Below, one piece after another: positions 2,882 through 61,204 of a stretch of DNA of 64,000 bases. A program made the translations under genes and the position numbers. Every line of letters begins with the position of its first letter. The stretch's first letter is position 1. The notes under the pieces are model-generated. The model searched no databases, had not been told where the DNA came from, and saw only the letters and a program-made list of their open reading frames with translations. The DNA lies in NCBI RefSeq assembly GCF_057098645.1, contig NZ_CM169472.1; one strand, given 5' to 3'.

Positions 2882-3075
2882 CCAACGCCATTCATGGCCA
2901 TATCAATGATTTTCTGGTGCGTACCGGGTTGAGAAGCGGTGTAAGTGAACTGCAGTTGCCATGTTTTACGGCAGTGAGAGCAGAGATAGCGCTGATGTCC
3001 GGCGGTGCTTTTGCCGTTACGCACCACCCCGTCAGTAGCTGAACAGGAGGGACAGCTGATAGAAACAGAAGCCAC
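2800..3075 (-). CDS. insA: IS1 InsA
   Basis: 91-aa [25 protein letters not shown]..., recognised as IS1 InsA. Confidence 0.9.
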
Positions 3076-3840
3076 TGGAGCACCTCAAAAACACCATCAT
3101 ACACTAAATCAGTAAGTTGGCAGCATCACCTCTTTAAGCATGCCATTAATATTTCTGCAATGCTCAACTGCGCTATTGTAAACATTTTTAACTTCATCAT
3201 TTGTTTCACGAAGCATTTTTACTGTTGTCGGTAGATTCTCGGCTGCATCATATGCTTCATTTATAGTTTTAATTTTCTCTTCTATATTACCAGTTTCAGC
3301 TGCAATTGCAGATATACCTGAATTATATAATTCTAATCTGCGTAAAATTTGCTTTGGTAATAAATTTCTATCTTTCAGCCTCTCAAATGAAAAAAGGTCA
3401 TTAATCCTATGAGAGATATATAACATTGAAATAACATAAGATGGTATAGCGGTCTGTTGAACTGATGCGTTACCATTGTTTATATGATTAATATTTTGCT
3501 GAGCATGATCCAGAGTGTAAATGAGCGCATCAATTACTGCAATGTCATCTGAAGATGGTACAAATTCCTGCATCTGATTAATTCTATCAGATAACATTTT
3601 TGGTAGTTCTATCAGATCCTCTTTATGTAAAAAAGGAAATGTGTACGGCCCAAGGTTTATAAAATCTTCCACAGGGAATACAAGACCATTAAGTGTTGTA
3701 TGTAAATTATCTAGTTTCTCTTTTAATTCAGTTAGTTTTTCGTTCATTAAAAAAATCCTTTATGACGCTATAGAACTTCCAGAGTAATCCGATAAAGATA
3801 TCATAAGACAATATTTTGGTATAAACACTTATTGCGCGCG

Positions 3841-4032: not shown

Positions 4033-4710
4033 CTAGAACGTGACAGCCTTGTCAAAGCCAGAAATAATTGTATAAGAAATAGACGAGTTATCAGCCTTGT
4101 TCACTTTGAACTTGGCACCTTTGTAAGCGATAACGTCACTTCCCTTAGAATCTACAGAAAAATCTGTTGTAAATGCTGCACGAGCCATATCGTTTGCAAA
4201 TTCACGATAGGTGAACTTCATTACACCGCCTGCATTTCCATTGTATTCGATAGTCTTAACCAATGAGTTACTAACTCGACACAGCCCATCAGGAACACGT
4301 TTGATAGAAATTTCTGATGCAGTATAAGAAGTACCATTTGGCGGTGATATCTCATTTTTTGCAGCATCGTAACTAACATAATCAACATAGTTACCGATTT
4401 GCCCATAGAGATTTTTTAACGCAACAGCTTGAGGGTTATGATAATTGCGGTAAATTCCATTCCCCTCACTGCAATATGTACCAGCAGCGATAGAAGACAA
4501 TGCACCATTAGCCGCACCAAGTTCTAGTACGTCCGTTTTAAATCCAGTAGCAGATGTGATAATGGGATCGCCCATGTAGGCGGTAGCACTTTGCCCAATA
4601 GCAGGCTTCACCACTTCAATAGCAGTGATATTTCGGTTAGAAGCATGTGGCACGCAACCAGTTAGGATTACAGCAAGAGATATTGGTAACGCTACATTAT
4701 TAATTTTCAT
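4033..4710 (-). CDS. Predicted lipoprotein, unknown function (prophage cargo)
   Basis: Start MKINNVALPISLAVILTGC with lipobox LTGC. 225-aa ORF with no family recognised. Confidence 0.65.
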   Translation of the reverse strand: MKINNVALPISLAVILTGCVPHASNRNITAIEVVKPAIGQSATAYMGDPIITSATGFKTDVLELGAANGALSSIAAGTYCSEGNGIYRNYHNPQAVALKNLYGQIGNYVDYVSYDAAKNEISPPNGTSYTASEISIKRVPDGLCRVSNSLVKTIEYNGNAGGVMKFTYREFANDMARAAFTTDFSVDSKGSDVIAYKGAKFKVNKADNSSISYTIISGFDKAVTF

Positions 4711-4823
4711 TTTTAGCCTATTATTCTTTTCTTGACAAAAAACAAGGCGATATCCGATTGACATCGCCTCTCACTCATATGTAACCCTTTTTGATTAGTA
4801 AAAACAAGCGTCTATTGACAAAA

Positions 4824-26795: not shown

Positions 26796-27686
26796 TCAGG
26801 CTGCCAGATCATCGTTTCCGATGGAAGCATAATAAGCTTTTTCTGCTTCTGCCGGGGGAGTATGGCCCAGCCTTTCCAGCAATCGTCGATTGTTATACCA
26901 GTCCACCCACGTGAGTGTGGCCAGTTCCACTTCTGCACGGTTTTTCCAGCTCTTACGGTGTATTACCTCCGCTTTGTAAAGACCATTGATGCTCTCCGCC
27001 ATCGCGTTGTCATACGAGTCACCTGTACTCCCTGTTGATGCCAGCAGTTTTGCTTCTTTTAGTCGCTCCGTATAGGCCAGTGATACATACTGAGAACCTT
27101 TATCACTGTGATGGACTGTGCCGGACGGCCGACGGGCCCACAACGCCTGCTCCAGTGCATCCAGCACGAATGTCGTTTCCATGGACGATGAGACCCGCCA
27201 CCCCACGATGTATCCGGCAAACACATCAATGATGAACGCCACATAGACGAAGCCCCGCCATGTGCTGACGTAAGTAAAATCAGCCACCCACAGCTGGTCA
27301 GGTCGTTCTGCCACGAACTGACGGTTTACGCGGTCGCCTGCGGCAACGGCTTTCCGGCTGATGGTCGTACGGACCTTTTTACCCCGGAGAACACCGGCAA
27401 GTCCCATAACTGCCATGAGACGTGCCACAGTGCATCTGGCCACTCTGATACCTTCCCGTAACAACTGACGCCAGACTTTACGCACACCGTATACCTGGTG
27501 ATTTTCATCGTATACGCGCTGTATCTCTTTCTTCAGCCAGTCATCGTGCTGCGCACGGGCACTGCGTTTATCCGGATGATGTCGCTGTTGCTGACAATGG
27601 TAATACGTTGACGGGGCAATATGCAGTTCGCTGCATAGCGGTCCGACCCCGTACTGCTCACGCAGCTTATCCAGCAGTGGCATCAT
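26796..27686 (-). CDS. IS629 OrfB (DDE transposase domain)
   Basis: 296 aa, [22 protein letters not shown].. Confidence 0.9.
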
Positions 27687-28009
27687 TTTTTCCAGAGGCG
27701 GTCGAACTCCGCCTTCGCAAAATAAGCGGAAGCCTGGCGAAGGATATCGTTACTGCGGCGCAGTTCACGATTTTCACGCTCCAGCTCTTTCAGACGCTGA
27801 CGTTCAGCGGTGGTGAGCCCGCCATCACCGCCCCCGGTATCCCGCTCATGCTGGCGAACCCAGACACGCAGAGTCTCCGGCGTACAGCCAATCTTTGGAG
27901 CAATGGAACAAATTGTCGCCCATTGTGAGTCATATTCATCCTGACTTTCCAGAACCATACGAATCGCCCGCTGACGGACTTCGGGGGAAAAACGAGTATT
28001 TTTAGTCAT
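27683..28009 (-). CDS. IS629 OrfA
   Basis: 108 aa, [22 protein letters not shown].. ATGA overlap with orfB. Confidence 0.9.
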
Positions 28010-35196: not shown

Positions 35197-35510
35197 CGAA
35201 TTTCTCCCGTGTAGAGGAACAGAGTTAAAAAGCCGGAAGCGGAATCAAATCACAGGATGACCATCTGCCAGTGGCTGGTCGTAAAAAAAAGGCCGCGCCA
35301 TGCGCAGCCGAAAATAAAGGGATAACGATGATAGTTTGAGAAAAACAGAAATAACACTTTTGTGGCAAAGCATGGTGCCGGGTGCCTCCCGGTGAATTCA
35401 GTATCAGCACCTGAATCCGCGATTACCCCATATTCCTTCTTGCTGATTGCCCCACCGCACAGGGGGATTCACCATGCAGAAGTGTTTTTAATAAACAGCA
35501 AACAAAAAAA

Positions 35511-36274: not shown

Positions 36275-36351
36275 GTGGCGCGTTGTAGTGGAGTCGAACC
36301 ACTGACCGATTGCTTAGAAGGCAATTGCTCTGTCCGGCTGAGCTAACAACG
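36275..36351 (-). tRNA. tRNA-Arg (anticodon UCU)
   Basis: Cloverleaf read by eye: acceptor gcgttgt/acaacgc, anticodon loop ctTCTaa, T-loop ttcgact, CCA end. Confidence 0.9.
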
Positions 36352-36452
36352 CAGAATACCGATAATGGACCGCCATCGGGGACCCGGCCCCGCACCAACA
36401 ACCCTGTTATGGTGTCGTCTGCTCTTCCTGATAAGCTAATGGCGGTTTGTGA

Positions 36453-36528
36453 TGGTGGCCCTTGCTGGATTTGAACCAGCGACCTGGCGATTATGAGTCG
36501 CTCGCTCTCACCACTGAGCTAAAGGGCC
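36453..36528 (-). tRNA. tRNA with CAU anticodon (ileX/ileZ-like tRNA-Ile2, or Met)
   Basis: ggccctttagctcagtgg...ctCATaa...ggttcaaatcc..CCA, close to E. coli ileX. Confidence 0.8.
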
Positions 36529-40671: not shown

Positions 40672-40827
40672 TTACTTCTCAGATTCGTAGTCTACGAAGA
40701 CAGCGACCTCCGTCTGACCGGTTCGGATTCGCACCTCGCAGAGGTCTTTCCTCGTTACCAGTGCCGTCACTATGACGGTTAAACAGATGACGATCAGGGC
40801 GATTAACATCGCCTTTTGCTGCTTCAT
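40672..40827 (-). CDS. hok: Hok-family membrane toxin (type I TA)
   Basis: MKQQKAMLIALIVICLTVIVTALVTRKDLCEVRIRTGQTEVAVF.., near-identical to HokD/RelF. The sok antisense is expected at about 40830-40900 on the plus strand. Confidence 0.85.
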   Translation of the reverse strand: MKQQKAMLIALIVICLTVIVTALVTRKDLCEVRIRTGQTEVAVFVDYESEK

Positions 40828-41117
40828 AGCCTGCTTCTCCTTGCCTTTCGGCACGTAAGAGGCTAACCTACATGTGTTCAGCATGGATTGAGCCTCAGAT
40901 TAATGTTAAGCGTCTTGCAGGACGCGTAATGTTAACTGGGGCTTTTCTCTATCTGCCGTTGGTGTTCATGCCCGAGGCAGATAGCCTCAAGCACCCGCTG
41001 CAATTCTACTTAACTATCCTTTTCCCGCAAACCGTTTTTATCCCCAGCGGCAAATCGAATACACCACCAGCGCCACCGCCATCGCAATTCCTACCGTTGT
41101 GAATGCTTCAGGCCAGG

Positions 41118-47998: not shown

Positions 47999-48349
47999 TT
48001 TATCCTCCATTGAGGTTCTGGGTTAAAAATGGAGACCAACACGCTGTCACGTGTGGTCGTGCGCCGGACACGGATAAGAATCCGGTACTGACAGTTTACT
48101 GAAAGGATATTTCCCTGAAAAGTCAGGGCATAACGCGAAAGCGTACGGCGAAGCTCTTTCCCTTAGAAGGCTTGTCGTTAGATTTCTTCGAACGTGCGCT
48201 TCCGGTTGTGGCACTCCGCGAAATGGCGCGGCGGTAAGTATGGCGGGGTTATTCCTTCCCCGTTGAGGACACCGGGTTGTCAGGTTGACCATACGCTTAA
48301 GTGACAATGAACCGCCCCGGGTTTCCTGGAGAGTGTTTTATCTGTGAAC

Positions 48350-49240
48350 TCAGGCTGCCAGATCATCGTTTCCGATGGAAGCATAATAAGCTTTTTCTGC
48401 TTCTGCCGGAGGAGTATGGCCCAGCCTTTCCAGCAATCGTCGATTGTTATACCAGTCCACCCACGTGAGTGTGGCCAGTTCCACTTCTGCACGGTTTTTC
48501 CAGCTCTTACGGTGTATTACCTCCGCTTTGTAAAGACCATTGATGCTCTCCGCCATCGCGTTGTCATACGAGTCGCCTGTACTTCCTGTTGATGCCAGTA
48601 ATCCGGCTTCCTTAAGCCGCTGTGTGTAGGCCAGCGATACATACTGAGAACCTTTATCACTGTGATGGACCGTGCCGGACGGTCGACGGGCCCATAACGC
48701 CTGCTCCAGTGCATCCAGCACGAATGTCGTCTCCATGGACGATGAGACCCGCCACCCCACAATGTATCCGGCAAACACATCAATGATGAACGCCACATAG
48801 ACGAAGCCCTGCCATGTGCTGACGTAAGTAAAATCAGCCACCCACAGCTGGTCAGGTCGTTCTGCCACGAACTGACGGTTTACGCGGTCGCCTGCGGCAA
48901 CGGCTTTCCGGCTGATGGTCGTACGGACCTTTTTACCCCGGAGAACACCGGCAAGTCCCATAACCGCCATGAGACGTGCCACAGTGCATCTGGCCACTCT
49001 GATACCTTCCCGTAACAACTGACGCCAGACTTTACGCACACCGTATACCTTGTGATTTTCATCGTATACGCGCTGTATCTCTTTCTTCAGCCAGTCATCG
49101 CGCTGCGCACGGGCACTGCGTTTATCCGGATGATGTCGCTGTTGCTGACAGTGGTAATACGTTGACGGGGCAATATGCAGTTCGCTGCATAGCGGTCCGA
49201 CCCCGTACTGCTCACGCAGCTTATCCAGCAGTGGCATCAT
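48350..49240 (-). CDS. IS629 OrfB
   Basis: 296 aa, a few substitutions relative to copy 1. Confidence 0.9.
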
Positions 49241-49563
49241 TTTTTCCAGAGGCGGTCGAACTCCGCCTTCGCAAAATAAGCGGAAGCCTGGCGAAGGATA
49301 TCGTTACTGCGGCGCAGTTCACGATTTTCACGCTCCAGCTCTTTCAGACGCTGACGTTCAGCGGTGGTGAGCCCTCCATCACCGCCCCCGGTATCCCGCT
49401 CATGCTGGCGAACCCAGACACGCAGAGTCTCCGGCGTACAGCCAATCTTTGGAGCAATGGAACAAATTGTCGCCCATTGTGAGTCATATTCGCCCTGACT
49501 TTCCAGAACCATACGGACTGCCCGTTGACGGACTTCAGGGGAAAAACGAGTATTTTTAGTCAT
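49237..49563 (-). CDS. IS629 OrfA
   Basis: 108 aa, a few substitutions relative to copy 1. Confidence 0.9.
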
Positions 49564-49647
49564 CCTGTTTACCTCTTTCTCAGGAAGTTTAGTCTCCAGG
49601 ATTCCCGGGGCGGTTCACAACCCCGCTGCAACGCCCTCTGTTATCAA

Positions 49648-49706
49648 TTTTCTGGTGACGTTTGGCGGTATCAGTTTTACTCCGTGGCTGCTCTGCCGCC
49701 CTTTTT
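49648..49706 (+). ncRNA. dicF: DicF small RNA (ftsZ-targeting) with its terminator
   Basis: tttctggtgacgtttggcggtatcagttttactccgtggctgctctgccgccc+ttttt, one mismatch to the recalled K-12 DicF. Followed by dicB as in Qin. Confidence 0.8.
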
Positions 49707-49881
49707 AAAGTGAATTTTGTGATGCGGTGAATGCGGCTAAGCGCACGCGGAACAGTTAAAACAAGCGGTCTTTTACGGGCGTAACGGGAATGCTCTGTAT
49801 CCGGCGTTAATTGTTAACTGGTTAACGTCACCTGGAGGCACCAGGCACTGCATCACAAAATTCATTGTTGAGGACGCGATA

Positions 49882-50070
49882 ATGGAAACGTTATTACCAA
49901 ACGTTAATACGTCTGAAGGTTGTTTTGAAATTGGTGTCACTATCAGTAACCCTGTATTTACTGAAGATGCCATTAACAAGAGAAAACACGAACGGGAGCT
50001 ATTAAATAAAATATGCATTCTTTCAATGCTGGCCCGTTTACGTCCGATACAAAAAGGATGCTGGCAATGA
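49882..50070 (+). CDS. dicB: Cell-division inhibitor DicB
   Basis: METLLPNVNTSEGCFEIGVTISNPVFTEDAINKRK.. matches K-12 DicB (62 aa). Confidence 0.85.
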   Translation: METLLPNVNTSEGCFEIGVTISNPVFTEDAINKRKHERELLNKICILSMLARLRPIQKGCWQ

Positions 50071-54161: not shown

Positions 54162-54251
54162 TGGCGGAGAGAGGGGGATTTGAACCCCCGGTGGAGTTGC
54201 CCCCACTCCGGTTTTCGAGACCGGTCCGTTCAGCCGCTCCGGCATCTCTCC
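54162..54251 (-). tRNA. serU: tRNA-Ser (anticodon CGA), serU; 3' 62 nt supplied by the prophage
   Basis: ggagagatgccggagcggctgaacggaccggtctCGAaaaccgg...CCA, with the long variable arm of class II tRNA. Confidence 0.9.
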
Positions 54252-55242: not shown

Positions 55243-55318
55243 TCCTCTGTAGTTCAGTCGGTAGAACGGCGGACTGTTAATCCGTATGTCACTGGTTCGA
55301 GTCCAGTCAGAGGAGCCA
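55243..55318 (+). tRNA. asnT: tRNA-Asn (anticodon GUU), asnT position
   Basis: tcctctgtagttcagtcggtagaacggcggactGTTaatccg..ggttcgagtcc..CCA. Confidence 0.9.
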
Positions 55319-58924: not shown

Positions 58925-59253
58925 GAATCCCCTGCAACATAAACAAACAGTCTCCGGCGTGTGCTGTTTGGCTGCGCCAGAACGATACCTTCACGCCGGA
59001 GTGGCTGGTTGTTGAGGTTTAAGGAGTTTCAGGCTGTACGCGGTACAGACTGCCTGACGAAGCAGGGGTGTCTCCGGAGCATCGTGCCCCCCTCGGTATC
59101 GATCTTTTTCTCCTTTACTCTGAGCTGACAGCTGCCCCAAAGGGCATGTCAGACGGCGGAAATATGGCGCAGGCCAGGACTGGCGCGGCTTGCGGCGGTG
59201 AGTTGTGCGGCGTCACTTTGCCCTGTCGCTGGCGCGACCAAAGTGACGCCTTG

Positions 59254-60869: not shown

Positions 60870-61204
60870 TGGACAATCTCCAGTATGTGGTTTTAAATCC
60901 ACCATCAGAGGTTCCAATCTCCTGGGTGGTGGACTGAGCGAGGTTGGAACTACCGATCATACTGGAACCGGCGCACTTTGCAGTGCCCTCACCCAGCCCA
61001 CCATTGAGGTACAGCCAAGCGCACGACACAAAAAATGTGTCGCCAGTATGAATAATCCGGGGTTCCAATCCCGACGCCTGATTTTGCAGACGCAGGCTAA
61101 GGATACTGTGATTAGCAATGAGTCACATGAGGGCATATGGATATCCCGGAGCAGACTTACCGGGGCCAGTACCTCGCCAGAAAGAGCGCCGTTCCTGTTA
61201 TTTA

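Follow-up and report, generated by a model that had tools for sequence, protein, structure and literature searches.

A conserved folded RNA in the leader upstream of DicF, interrupted by IS629 in a dicB-type prophage operon

The DicF-dicB locus and its IS629 insertion

The stretch of DNA analysed here, referred to as the window, comprises 64,000 nt of contig NZ_CM169472.1 (assembly GCF_057098645.1). About 1.3 kb after the repressor gene of a dicB-type operon, it carries an untranslated leader that is split by an insertion sequence and followed by the small RNA DicF, its terminator and a dicB homologue:

48011-48112, plus strand: 5' part of the leader with the hairpin CCGGA/UCCGG (48064-48085), specific to this prophage type
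48308-49617, minus strand: IS629 (IS3 family), 1310 bp, ending in inverted repeats and flanked by a 3-bp CAA duplication
49633-49706, plus strand: linker with an AU-rich stretch, DicF (49650-49701; Rfam RF00039, 75 bits) and the U-tract of the terminator
49710-49865, plus strand: long-range stem between DicF and dicB, GUGAAUUUUGUGAUGC (49710-25) with GCAUCACAAAAUUCAU (49850-65), the 16-nt strands being exactly complementary
49882-50070, plus strand: dicB homologue, the first gene past the leader and terminator; the identical gene in E. coli E2863 is annotated "cell division inhibition protein DicB"

DicF, one of the first small RNAs known from bacteria, is important in cell division, metabolism and EHEC virulence, while the ~340-nt untranslated RNA ahead of it has so far been treated as spacer. 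RNase E and RNase III have been described as releasing DicF from the ydfABC-dicF-dicB RNA, with a 5' end made by RNase E and a 3' end made by the terminator (PMC5069750, PMC9438474). The DicF covariance model matched only 49650-49701, with no match in 48011-48307 or 49618-49649. The RNase III cutting that gives a 72-nt DicF has been placed at the position of the downstream long-range stem (PMC5069750), and we infer that the 49710-25/49850-65 pairing is its substrate; the same stem gave a weak STnc100-like Rfam match (34.5 bits).

The interruption by IS629 that an earlier note on this DNA had described was confirmed, with bounds at exactly 48308-49617. The insertion shows every hallmark of the IS3 family: a length of ~1.3 kb, inverted repeats at its ends (TGAACCGCCCCGGG), copies of the CAA target duplication at 48305-07 and 49618-20, orfA and orfB on the minus strand (ORFs of 108 and 296 aa), and an IS3-type ALIL frameshift pseudoknot at 49166-49282 (120 bits, Rfam). 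As a single contiguous match, the IS629/leader junction was absent from complete E. coli genomes. E. coli E2863 carries the same locus without the insertion and is 100% identical, the sequence beyond the insertion being contiguous there with 48307.

A conserved non-coding fold

The leader RNA is genuinely conserved, folded and non-coding, and the family it represents has not previously been described. Its core spans ~128 nt without the insertion (48205-48307 and 49621-49632) and forms a four-way junction (P0, P1, P2/P3, P4) with a pseudoknot. The upstream domain, consisting of hairpin X and helix P-1, is also conserved. The parts of the element in the window are:

48113-48135, plus strand: hairpin X, CCCUGA-AAAG-UCAGGG (48113-48128), and a CAUAAC motif; other leader types have hairpins in the same place
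48137-48203, plus strand: helix P-1, GAAAGCGUAC (48137-48146) with GUGCGCUUCC (48194-48203), a long-range pairing around a variable insert
48205-48212, plus strand: 5' strand of P0, GUUGUGGC, which pairs with 49625-49632 and closes the core
48216-48231, plus strand: hairpin P1, CCGCG-AAAUGG-CGCGG, nearly invariant in all homologues
48232-48274, plus strand: P2, CGGU (48232-35) with ACCG (48271-74), enclosing GUAUGG (48238-43) and P3 (48244-48262); its UA pair is CG in 4 sequences
48275-48307, plus strand: P4, with 5' strand GGUUGUCAGG, loop UUGACCAUACG containing the pseudoknot strand CCAUAC (48289-94), and the start of the 3' strand up to the insertion; changed on both sides among homologues
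49618-49632, plus strand: second CAA copy, the end of the P4 3' strand (CC), junction CC and the P0 3' strand GCUGCAAC (49625-49632); contiguous with 48307 in E2863

Over 75 distinct homologues, 96% of the pair cells were paired and 13 pairs had changed on both sides, a number matched by none of 500 shuffles; in a slid-partner control, pairing fell to 31-56%. The compensatory changes occurred in independent lineages, namely phage P1, Izhakiella, Citrobacter, Serratia and the homologue L176. Conserved positions cluster in the junctions, the loops and the pseudoknot, while the stems covary, and the G-U pairs identify the plus strand as the one that folds. With the pairs that carry natural compensatory changes mapped, the model is directly testable by mutation.

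Six of the eight outer pairs of P4 have changed on both sides, as in phage P1 (UUGCCA/UGGCAA) and Izhakiella (GGGUAACCA/UGGUUACCC), and P0 exchanges UG/UA/CG and CG/UG/UA pairs among the 75 sequences; P0 is also drawn in the minimum free energy (MFE) fold of the uninterrupted sequence. For the pseudoknot, in which GUAUGG pairs with CCAUAC of the P4 loop, compensation has arisen twice independently, as GCAUGG/CCAUGC in phage P1 and as AUAUGG/CCAUAU in L176. The stems of P3 are highly variable (CGGGG/CCCCG, CUGGG/CCCAG, CAGGUG/CACCUG, CCCGGG/CCCGGG, CUGGGG/CUCCAG), and nearly all of the 44 variants are predicted to fold into a hairpin, mostly P3-like. Inspection by eye for a tertiary contact of the P3 loop with the GAGGA that follows it gave no consistent pairing across types. 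A relaxed viral scan with anchors placed outside the pseudoknot yielded mostly chance matches in GC-rich phages and one useful variant.

In the upstream domain, counterparts of hairpin X in other leader types read GCCUG..CAGGC, CCUGG-GAAGAGA-CCAGG, GCUGG-GAAAGA-CCAGC and CUCUGA/UCAGAG, each followed by RCAYAAC. For the 14 nt immediately 5' of P0, the best pairing partner was the segment directly after hairpin X in all 14 leader types, although the sequences of this helix P-1 differ by type and its inserts range from 33 to 129 nt. Helix P-1 also appears in the single-sequence MFE fold.

All five hairpins named in the earlier note are present, with differing comparative backing. Strong support was found for the one at 48244-62 (P3), and that at 48113-28 holds across leader types; the hairpin at 48216-31 (P1) is nearly invariant (97% paired; CCGCG-ACAGG-CGCGG in phages P1 and P7) and shows no compensatory change. 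The stem at 48064-85 is kept in Qin-type relatives but offers no informative variation, homology to K-12 Qin starting near 48069. The 48133-44 hairpin competes with helix P-1, which covaries across leader types. Conservation is lacking for the closing helix proposed in that note, ccggttgt/acaccgg (48202-09 with 48269-75), where cdtI-type homologues read agcgttgt, and the three-way junction built on it is wrong: the strands pair instead in P0 (48205-12 with 49625-32, past the insertion) and P2 (48232-35 with 48271-74). Likewise, the description "hairpin-dense" stands for the hairpins themselves but not for a density above chance in the single sequence, the core having a fold z-score of -0.63 and the upstream stretch of 193 nt one of -1.35; -2.66 was reached only for 400 nt that included DicF and the terminator.

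The leader was said to be free of ORFs, and with the insertion removed its longest stop-free stretch on the plus strand is indeed 62 codons. Homologues range from 138 to 149 nt in length, and P3 length changes of 1, 2, 4 and 5 nt throw the conserved block into three different reading frames; this disposes of the degraded gene that had been offered as one option. No annotated feature lies here in E2863 (RefSeq, PGAP) or K-12 Qin, ydfC of K-12 stops 60 nt ahead of the start of homology, and the uninterrupted loci hold no protein gene. Neither of the two observations that the earlier note had named as refuting it was made, and the covarying helices bear out its suggestion of a structured non-coding RNA within the DicF transcription unit, possibly an element for processing or antitermination. 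Several phage records carry a minus-strand "hypothetical protein" over the element, and such an ORF matches phrog_3651; the element explains these spurious opposite-strand calls. As a candidate, a protein-coding gene, whether a ydfC relative or the minus-strand phrog_3651 ORF, was rejected, no frame being kept open in register across homologues.

It is accordingly very improbable that the hairpins lack a function and owe their conservation only to recent prophage spread, or that the region is a protein gene, intact or decayed, of one strand or the other. The ordinary single-sequence folding energy would fit such an account, as would a minus-strand frame that runs through the element without a stop in 45 of the 75 sequences, an ORF of this kind matching a PHROG family. 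Against it stand the compensatory changes in independent lineages, a conserved core between flanks that are not conserved, the frame-breaking P3 indels and three-frame reading, and stops in all plus-strand frames in 68/75 sequences and in all minus-strand frames in 30/75.

Distribution and genomic context

Of 5426 complete E. coli genomes, 4416 carry the core and none has it annotated; an annotation for the element is lacking from thousands of genomes. Its identity among Qin, cdtI and phage P1 is 77-89%, and the flanks cannot be aligned. The Rfam scan proposed in the earlier note (Rfam 15, 4227 models, E <= 10, uninterrupted E2863 leader) returned no family over the element, where only noise appeared (mascRNA, E=8; Evf-2, E=5.5); outside the element it recovered DicF and, further downstream, an STnc100 match below threshold. 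ARAGORN found no tRNA-like or tmRNA-like RNA in 8 loci. In the literature searched, some key older papers lying outside its scope, neither the 128-nt core nor the upstream domain is described, and both are unannotated in K-12.

An intrinsic terminator follows the element by 46-151 nt in all 129 loci, across 18-70 nt of variable sequence, and in the window it is the terminator of DicF. In cdtI, E2863 and phage P1, this is the sole strong sense-strand terminator in the scanned stretch. That one terminator is tightly coupled to the element, with none obvious beyond, weighs against terminator control as a role, a local device or a small RNA gene fitting as well as antitermination does. Each locus has one copy, on the left-operon side only; no second, right-operon copy was found in 75 loci, nor another copy elsewhere in the window.

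Lambdoid phages carry the element downstream of PL. The order in cdtI is a promoter matching PL at 11/12 positions, a ~590-nt leader without a credible ORF, in which the element lies ~280 nt downstream of the promoter, and then the terminator, with a stem of ~10 bp. In phages P1 and P7, the element directly follows the repressor-controlled Pban; in P1 it begins ~20-35 nt past the annotated C1-controlled Pban and its operator, and is followed by a UUCG terminator, tRNA genes and ban. A "dicF-like region" in the P1 record overlaps P4 of the element and is not a DicF homologue. In Qin-type prophages the element comes after ydfABC-like genes and far from the promoter, unlike putL, an arrangement that counts against terminator control.

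The tails beyond the element differ much more than the element itself: DicF-like tails are very diverse, cdtI-type phages and P1 pair it with non-DicF tails, and pPE4 has a tandem duplicate of the DicF-like unit. PHROGs searches with eight flanking ORFs (three in cdtI, five in the window) matched only families of unknown function; no match was annotated as an N-type antiterminator, which is in keeping with terminator control.

The insertion point of IS629 lies within the P4 3' strand, so that P4 is severed at its base in the window and the 3' strand of P0 has been carried 1.3 kb away. IS629 also separates DicF and dicB from the operon promoter. Because it both splits P0 and P4 and severs the link to the promoter, the window copy should be inactive, and regulated expression of DicF and dicB is predicted to have been lost from the prophage of this genome.

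Candidate roles and comparison with known systems

The role that we consider most likely, although tentatively and on comparative sequence grounds, is control of the adjacent terminator. The element belongs to a repressor-controlled early transcript and is complete 46-151 nt before a strong intrinsic terminator; the folded nascent RNA may then influence, in cis, either the transcribing complex or the formation of the terminator. It could thereby set the share of polymerases that stop, releasing a DicF-type small RNA, against those that read on into dicB, kil and recombination genes, and the terminator decision would determine the ratio of DicF-type RNA to toxic proteins of the DicB/Kil type. 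As the fold is shared with phage P1 and many lambdoid phages that apparently lack N, it is a candidate for how the terminator at the head of an early operon is passed or regulated. It is possible, though doubtful, that the element represents a new class of protein-independent regulatory RNA, either a polymerase-directed antiterminator unrelated to put or a riboswitch-like sensor, gating lambdoid early-left operons and the ban/tRNA operon of P1. If so, an early-left operon with DicF/DicB-type division inhibitors, kil and recombination genes would be under a control that is unannotated in ~4/5 of E. coli genomes.

When six leader types were examined by constrained folds and duplex searches, no alternative, antiterminator helix involving the terminator proved to be conserved, which counts against terminator control; the only recurring feature was a GGCGG(UA) motif shared by the element and the 5' half of the terminator. 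The lack of such a helix agrees with another reading, to which we give appreciable but limited credence: the element would form the folded 5' portion of a precursor of the DicF class, or would be a small RNA in its own right, with the terminator simply ending the RNA gene. Such an RNA could steer or restrict the RNase E attack by which the base-pairing 3' RNA is released, could make the precursor more stable, or could have a trans function of its own, such as capturing a host protein as a partner or decoy. What Rfam (RF00039) and published work describe is limited to the 52-72 nt of DicF, and the element lies immediately upstream in the same transcript. Element and DicF-like terminator always occur together, the predicted primary transcript of P1 from the Pban start to the terminator is ~170-190 nt, the DicF-like unit of pPE4 is duplicated in tandem, and RNase E makes the DicF 5' end in the AU-rich linker, 18 nt past P0 (PMC5069750). 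However, a plain promoter would be enough for a small RNA, and plasmid-expressed DicF alone works (PMC6582626): the leader is dispensable for DicF action, a result that says nothing on read-through. In addition, the element sits inside long operon leaders with genes beyond the terminator, it is conserved while DicF-like tails diverge, and a candidate trans role has no known binding partner.

A riboswitch, that is, a sensor domain reading a host metabolite or ion and deciding termination at the adjacent terminator, appears unlikely. Like terminator-coupled riboswitches, the element is a conserved multi-helix junction with a pseudoknot in a 5' leader, followed by an intrinsic terminator that is always next. 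Its conservation in junctions, loops and pseudoknot combined with covarying stems is typical of ligand-binding domains, and a host-supplied signal would account for its sharing by unrelated phages (P1, lambdoid). In contrast to riboswitches, a conserved switching helix, with mutually exclusive pairing to the terminator across the 18-70 nt variable spacer, was not found in the six leader types searched; the element also has no known ligand or hint of one in the downstream genes, and no match, riboswitch or other, among the 4227 Rfam models.

Comparison with the lambda nutL/N leader bears on a further alternative, a nut-like site (boxA plus a boxB-like hairpin) for an N-type phage protein and host Nus factors. 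The lambda N leader consists of the site, a long RNase III-type hairpin and the first gene, and the element occupies the same early-left position in the same layout; the 5' half of hairpin X (CCCUGAAAAG...) resembles lambda boxB, and UGCUCUYU stands immediately 5' of P0 in several types. This boxA-like run, however, forms the 3' side of helix P-1 and changes in step with the opposite strand; it is absent in phage P1 and altered in the Qin type. A boxA/nut site was rejected as a candidate, as a single-stranded boxA (GCUCUUUA-like) 5' of boxB is missing: hairpin X has no boxA before it and the boxA-like run is base-paired. Moreover, none of the eight neighbouring ORFs has a PHROG annotated as N-like, P1 is not known to encode an N, and the element, which P1 shares, is far larger and more complex than nutL. 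The nut-like account is therefore hard to sustain.

Under the terminator-control reading, the element would be a gate or antiterminator that needs no phage protein, functionally similar to the put RNAs of HK022 and HK639 and unrelated to them in sequence and fold. Put RNA works in cis without phage proteins, and mutations in the beta' zinc-binding domain of RNA polymerase block its effect. It binds this domain and suppresses pausing and termination, its two stems forming a V shape with a triplex (PMC9378689). The element has a four-way junction and a pseudoknot instead, and put membership was rejected, the sequence and structure (two stems, 5' duplex/triplex, conserved U28 and G35) not being alignable. 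Blastn at word size 7 gave only chance 10-13-mers, and the covariance model R1 with filters off had no match at HK022 putL, putR or the HK639 putL-like feature; short common strings (GCGCGGCGG; UAAG(U/C)AUGG vs UAAACCAUG) were noticed on visual inspection alone and do not count as evidence. This lack of similarity to put weighs against terminator control. In contrast to put, the element is always coupled to one nearby terminator, and its antitermination is putative. The likeness lies in position and mode of encoding: the put RNAs (HK022 putL and putR, HK639 putL-like) are likewise cis-encoded, nascent folded RNAs on the sense strand of a repressor-controlled early operon, after its promoter and before terminators, as is the element in P1, cdtI and the window, and they require no phage protein upstream, as is proposed here. 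The HK639 putL-like feature, at 126 nt, is also near the element in size, and it is a single annotated copy in the left operon only, like the copies in the phages described here.

A conserved RNA fold in the DicF leader and its interruption by IS629

The DicF leader holds a widespread, covariation-supported RNA fold that lies on the sense strand, is non-coding and always stands just before a terminator. Its core (48205-48307 plus 49621-49632) was modelled from 75 distinct sequences (alignment A1).

Features of the core and its locus
P0, closing helix: GUUGUGGC with GCUGCAAC
P1, hairpin: CCGCG-AAAUGG-CGCGG
P2, helix enclosing P3: CGGU with ACCG
P3, hairpin: CGGGG..CCCCG
P4, hairpin: GGUUGUCAGG..CU-UAAG-UGACAACC
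Pseudoknot: GUAUGG (between P2 and P3) with CCAUAC of the P4 loop
48137-48146 with 48194-48203: helix P-1 of the upstream domain
48308-49617 (exactly; 1310 bp): IS629 insertion, TGAACCGCCCCGGG inverted ends, 3-bp duplication CAA at 48305-48307 and 49618-49620
49166-49282, minus strand: IS3-type frameshift (ALIL) pseudoknot (Rfam)
49650-49701, plus strand: DicF (Rfam)

In the MAFFT alignment of the 75 sequences, 94.9% of cells were paired and both sides had changed in 12 pairs; a model-guided alignment gave 96.0% and 13 pairs. None of 500 shuffles attained these values in either alignment, and pairing fell to 31-56% once the partners were offset by 1-3 columns. Independent compensatory events included UUGCCA/UGGCAA in phage P1, a triple change in Izhakiella (GGGUAACCA/UGGUUACCC), G-C to A-U in Citrobacter and, in P2, U-A to C-G in phage P7. 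The pseudoknot had undergone two independent double changes, GCAUGG/CCAUGC (phage P1) and AUAUGG/CCAUAU (contig L176), and the P3 stem showed wholesale sequence replacement in nearly all 44 variants, still with a predicted hairpin that was mostly P3-like. The helices of the model thus covary on homologous loci, the check proposed in the earlier note; hairpin P1 is conserved only, with no covariation among homologues. RNAfold returned the same nested helices from one uninterrupted sequence. Since the scan patterns fixed GGCGGYAAGYAT and AGGTTGACCATRCG, the invariance there is partly ascertainment; the P1, P7 and F1055 phage copies, found by BLAST, independently retain both motifs.

The leader had been described as hairpin-dense and ORF-free, and all five hairpins are present, with a longest open plus-strand frame of at most 62 codons. 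The proposed closing helix (48202-48209 with 48269-48275) shows no conservation: its 5' strand is part of P0, whose partner (49625-49632) lies beyond the IS. Folding energy by itself does not distinguish the region: the core has a z-score of -0.63 and the upstream half one of -1.35, and -2.66 is reached only when DicF and the terminator are included.

IS629, with both transposase ORFs on the minus strand, physically breaks the folded RNA in this genome. With the IS and one CAA removed, the leader matches, at 100% identity across 420 nt, the uninterrupted locus of E. coli E2863, which has no RefSeq annotation from a 69-aa minus-strand gene to dicB. As a contiguous match, the IS629 junction is absent from all complete E. 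coli genomes searched. A second ALIL pseudoknot at 27612-27728 (minus strand; 120.2 bits, the same score as the IS629 copy) indicates at least one further IS629/IS3-type copy in the window.

Coding potential and the upstream domain

The element measures 138 to 149 nt, with stops in all plus frames in 68 of 75 sequences and in all minus frames in 30 of 75. In open minus frames, identical conserved nucleotides translate as AILTAAPFRG, HTYRRAISR or PYLPPRRF, depending on the variant; the frame-by-frame stop counts and these three translations of one conserved block led us to reject a protein-coding reading. Some phages carry annotated minus-strand "hypothetical proteins" over the element, one of them matched by phrog_3651, and because the element is non-coding these are best read, with phrog_3651, as artefacts of nucleotide conservation. 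The phrog_3651 family ("unknown function") matches a minus-strand ORF at 3045-3500 of homologous locus L005, overlapping the element and its terminator, and in light of the frame analysis was probably built on non-coding sequence.

The 14 nt directly 5' of P0 are boxA-like (UGCUCUYU in several leader types). Their best pairing partner, in all 14 leader types examined, is the segment directly after hairpin X and the conserved RCAYAAC motif, which defines helix P-1; its strands differ in sequence among leader types and its inserts span 33 to 129 nt. A free boxA 5' of P0 was therefore rejected. Hairpin X (48113-48128) is replaced in other leader types by hairpins of other sequence. The sequence of a further hairpin of the earlier note (48133-48144) is present, but it overlaps P-1 in that helix's 5' strand, which makes the two mutually exclusive.

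F1055-, Erwinia- and Izhakiella-type leaders (homologous loci L010, ~2350-2480, L148 and L149) carry a P-1 insert with two canonical T-loop hairpins, CUGG-UUCGAUU-CCAG and GUCCG-UUCAAUU-CGGAC. ARAGORN called no tRNA on these leaders, and the hairpins could be T-loop structural modules or tRNA-gene remnants. Several leader types have two copies of the motif UUGUUGUUGGGGA(A/U)A, ~35 nt apart, just 5' of hairpin X (seen in loci L023, L033, L137 and L139, where they precede the core by 100-200 nt); the copies could serve as operators or promoter elements at the early-left promoter.

Relatives and distribution

K-12 Qin matches over ~360 nt at ~92% identity, from well upstream of DicF to just beyond its terminator; ydfC ends 60 nt before the homology starts, and the ydfC-dicF spacing is 340 nt. 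A ~120-nt sub-block is found without the remaining leader in three other settings. It lies 3' of a cI-type repressor and PL in phages cdtI, 2H10 and Ayreon, Stx2c phages, Salmonella phage F1055 and one phage deposited as Actinobacillus phage. In phages P1 and P7 it directly follows the C1-controlled Pban promoter (77-82% identity), and the P1 record has an overlapping annotation, "dicF-like region". It is also matched in 511 plasmid records, mostly with P1/P7-level identity, which we take to be P1-like.

A further 120 viral contigs and 17 species-representative genomes came from pattern scans, with matches in Escherichia, Shigella, Citrobacter, Serratia symbiotica, Trabulsiella, Erwinia tracheiphila and Izhakiella. 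Of 5426 complete E. coli genomes, 4416 carried the core (9458 copies, at most eight per genome) and none had it annotated; each locus, like the whole window, holds one copy. Copies in MAGs bearing the labels Bacillota, Veillonella parvula and Collinsella (L140, L141, L145) are identical in sequence to P1 or E. coli prophages and almost certainly reflect binning contamination. Phage vB_Apl-pPE4 (L011, ~2620-2800), deposited as an Actinobacillus phage, has an E. coli-like early region; in this phage the unit CCCCGCCACAAC...GGCGGGUAUCCG, comprising the 3' strand of P0 and the DicF-like RNA, is duplicated in tandem. In a Shigella flexneri deletion variant (L139, 1447-1590), the CACAAC motif after hairpin X is fused to hairpin P1, with loss of P-1 and the 5' strand of P0; this looks like decay via recombination between repeated YAAC motifs.

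Further RNA features of the window
49710-49865: RNA between DicF and dicB (3401-3547 in homologous locus L002), sub-threshold STnc100 match (34.5 bits vs a threshold of 47)
35334-35506, minus strand: full Rfam STnc100 match
40822-40996, 58979-59107, 60922-61106, 36279-36528, 54165-54251, 55243-55315 (jointly): sok antitoxin RNA, EFASI, C4 antisense RNA with a1/b1 targets, isrK, four tRNA genes

From these matches, STnc100 may be a leader hairpin of dicB/kil-type genes in prophages. C4 with its targets and isrK form a P1/P7-type immunity module, and the jointly listed RNA genes point to several prophages within the 64 kb.

Terminator context, possible functions and known RNA systems

At every one of 129 loci, P4 is followed within 46-151 nt (median 79) by an intrinsic terminator, a hairpin with a U-tract. 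This terminator is DicF itself, one of several DicF-like variants with UUUGGCGG(U/G)A in common or, in phage P1, GCCCAUC-UUCG-GGUGGGC. In cdtI, a PL promoter (11 of 12 consensus positions) is followed by a ~590-nt leader with the element and no credible ORF, the terminator, a long perfect hairpin and the first gene. This order recurs in the window, where a 16-bp long-range stem (49710-49725 with 49850-49865) precedes dicB; RNase III is reported to produce 72-nt DicF at this position (PMC5069750). The stretches scanned in E2863, P1 and cdtI contained no further strong sense-strand terminator, and PHROGs matches among 8 neighbouring ORFs included none annotated as an N-like protein. Our best guess, a tentative one, is that the element gates the adjacent terminator; that it is instead a trans-acting RNA, or forms the structured part of a DicF-class precursor, seems only somewhat less likely.

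Long terminator variants (L148, ~4690-4760; L010, L137, L146, L149) have a loop with AGGAG followed by AUG/GUG UUC U(A/G)C CG. The frame so opened continues through the U-tract; it may represent a leader peptide or another very small ORF, or arise by chance from the stem sequence.

The invariant GGCGGUA of the element (48230-48236, end of hairpin P1 and start of P2) recurs in the DicF terminator as its 5' half (UUUGGCGGUA, 49673-49679), and in a 400-nt MFE structure the element's copy pairs with the terminator's 3' half, which may reflect competition for the terminator strand. No conserved switching helix between element and terminator was found, which weakens a classical riboswitch reading more than a polymerase-directed one. 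A ligand sensor seems improbable.

An Rfam scan at E <= 10 matched no family to the element, and by the criteria examined no membership in the put, nut, DicF or Rfam riboswitch classes was established. We found no earlier description in the literature searched, although relevant older papers may mention it. The genomic logic of the element is also that of HK022 putL/putR and of the 126-nt RNA annotated as putL-like in HK639; neither blastn nor the covariance model showed any similarity to them. As solved, put RNA forms a V of two stems with a triplex (PMC9378689), whereas the element is modelled as a four-way junction with a pseudoknot; by analogy of position, it might nevertheless work in a put-like manner.
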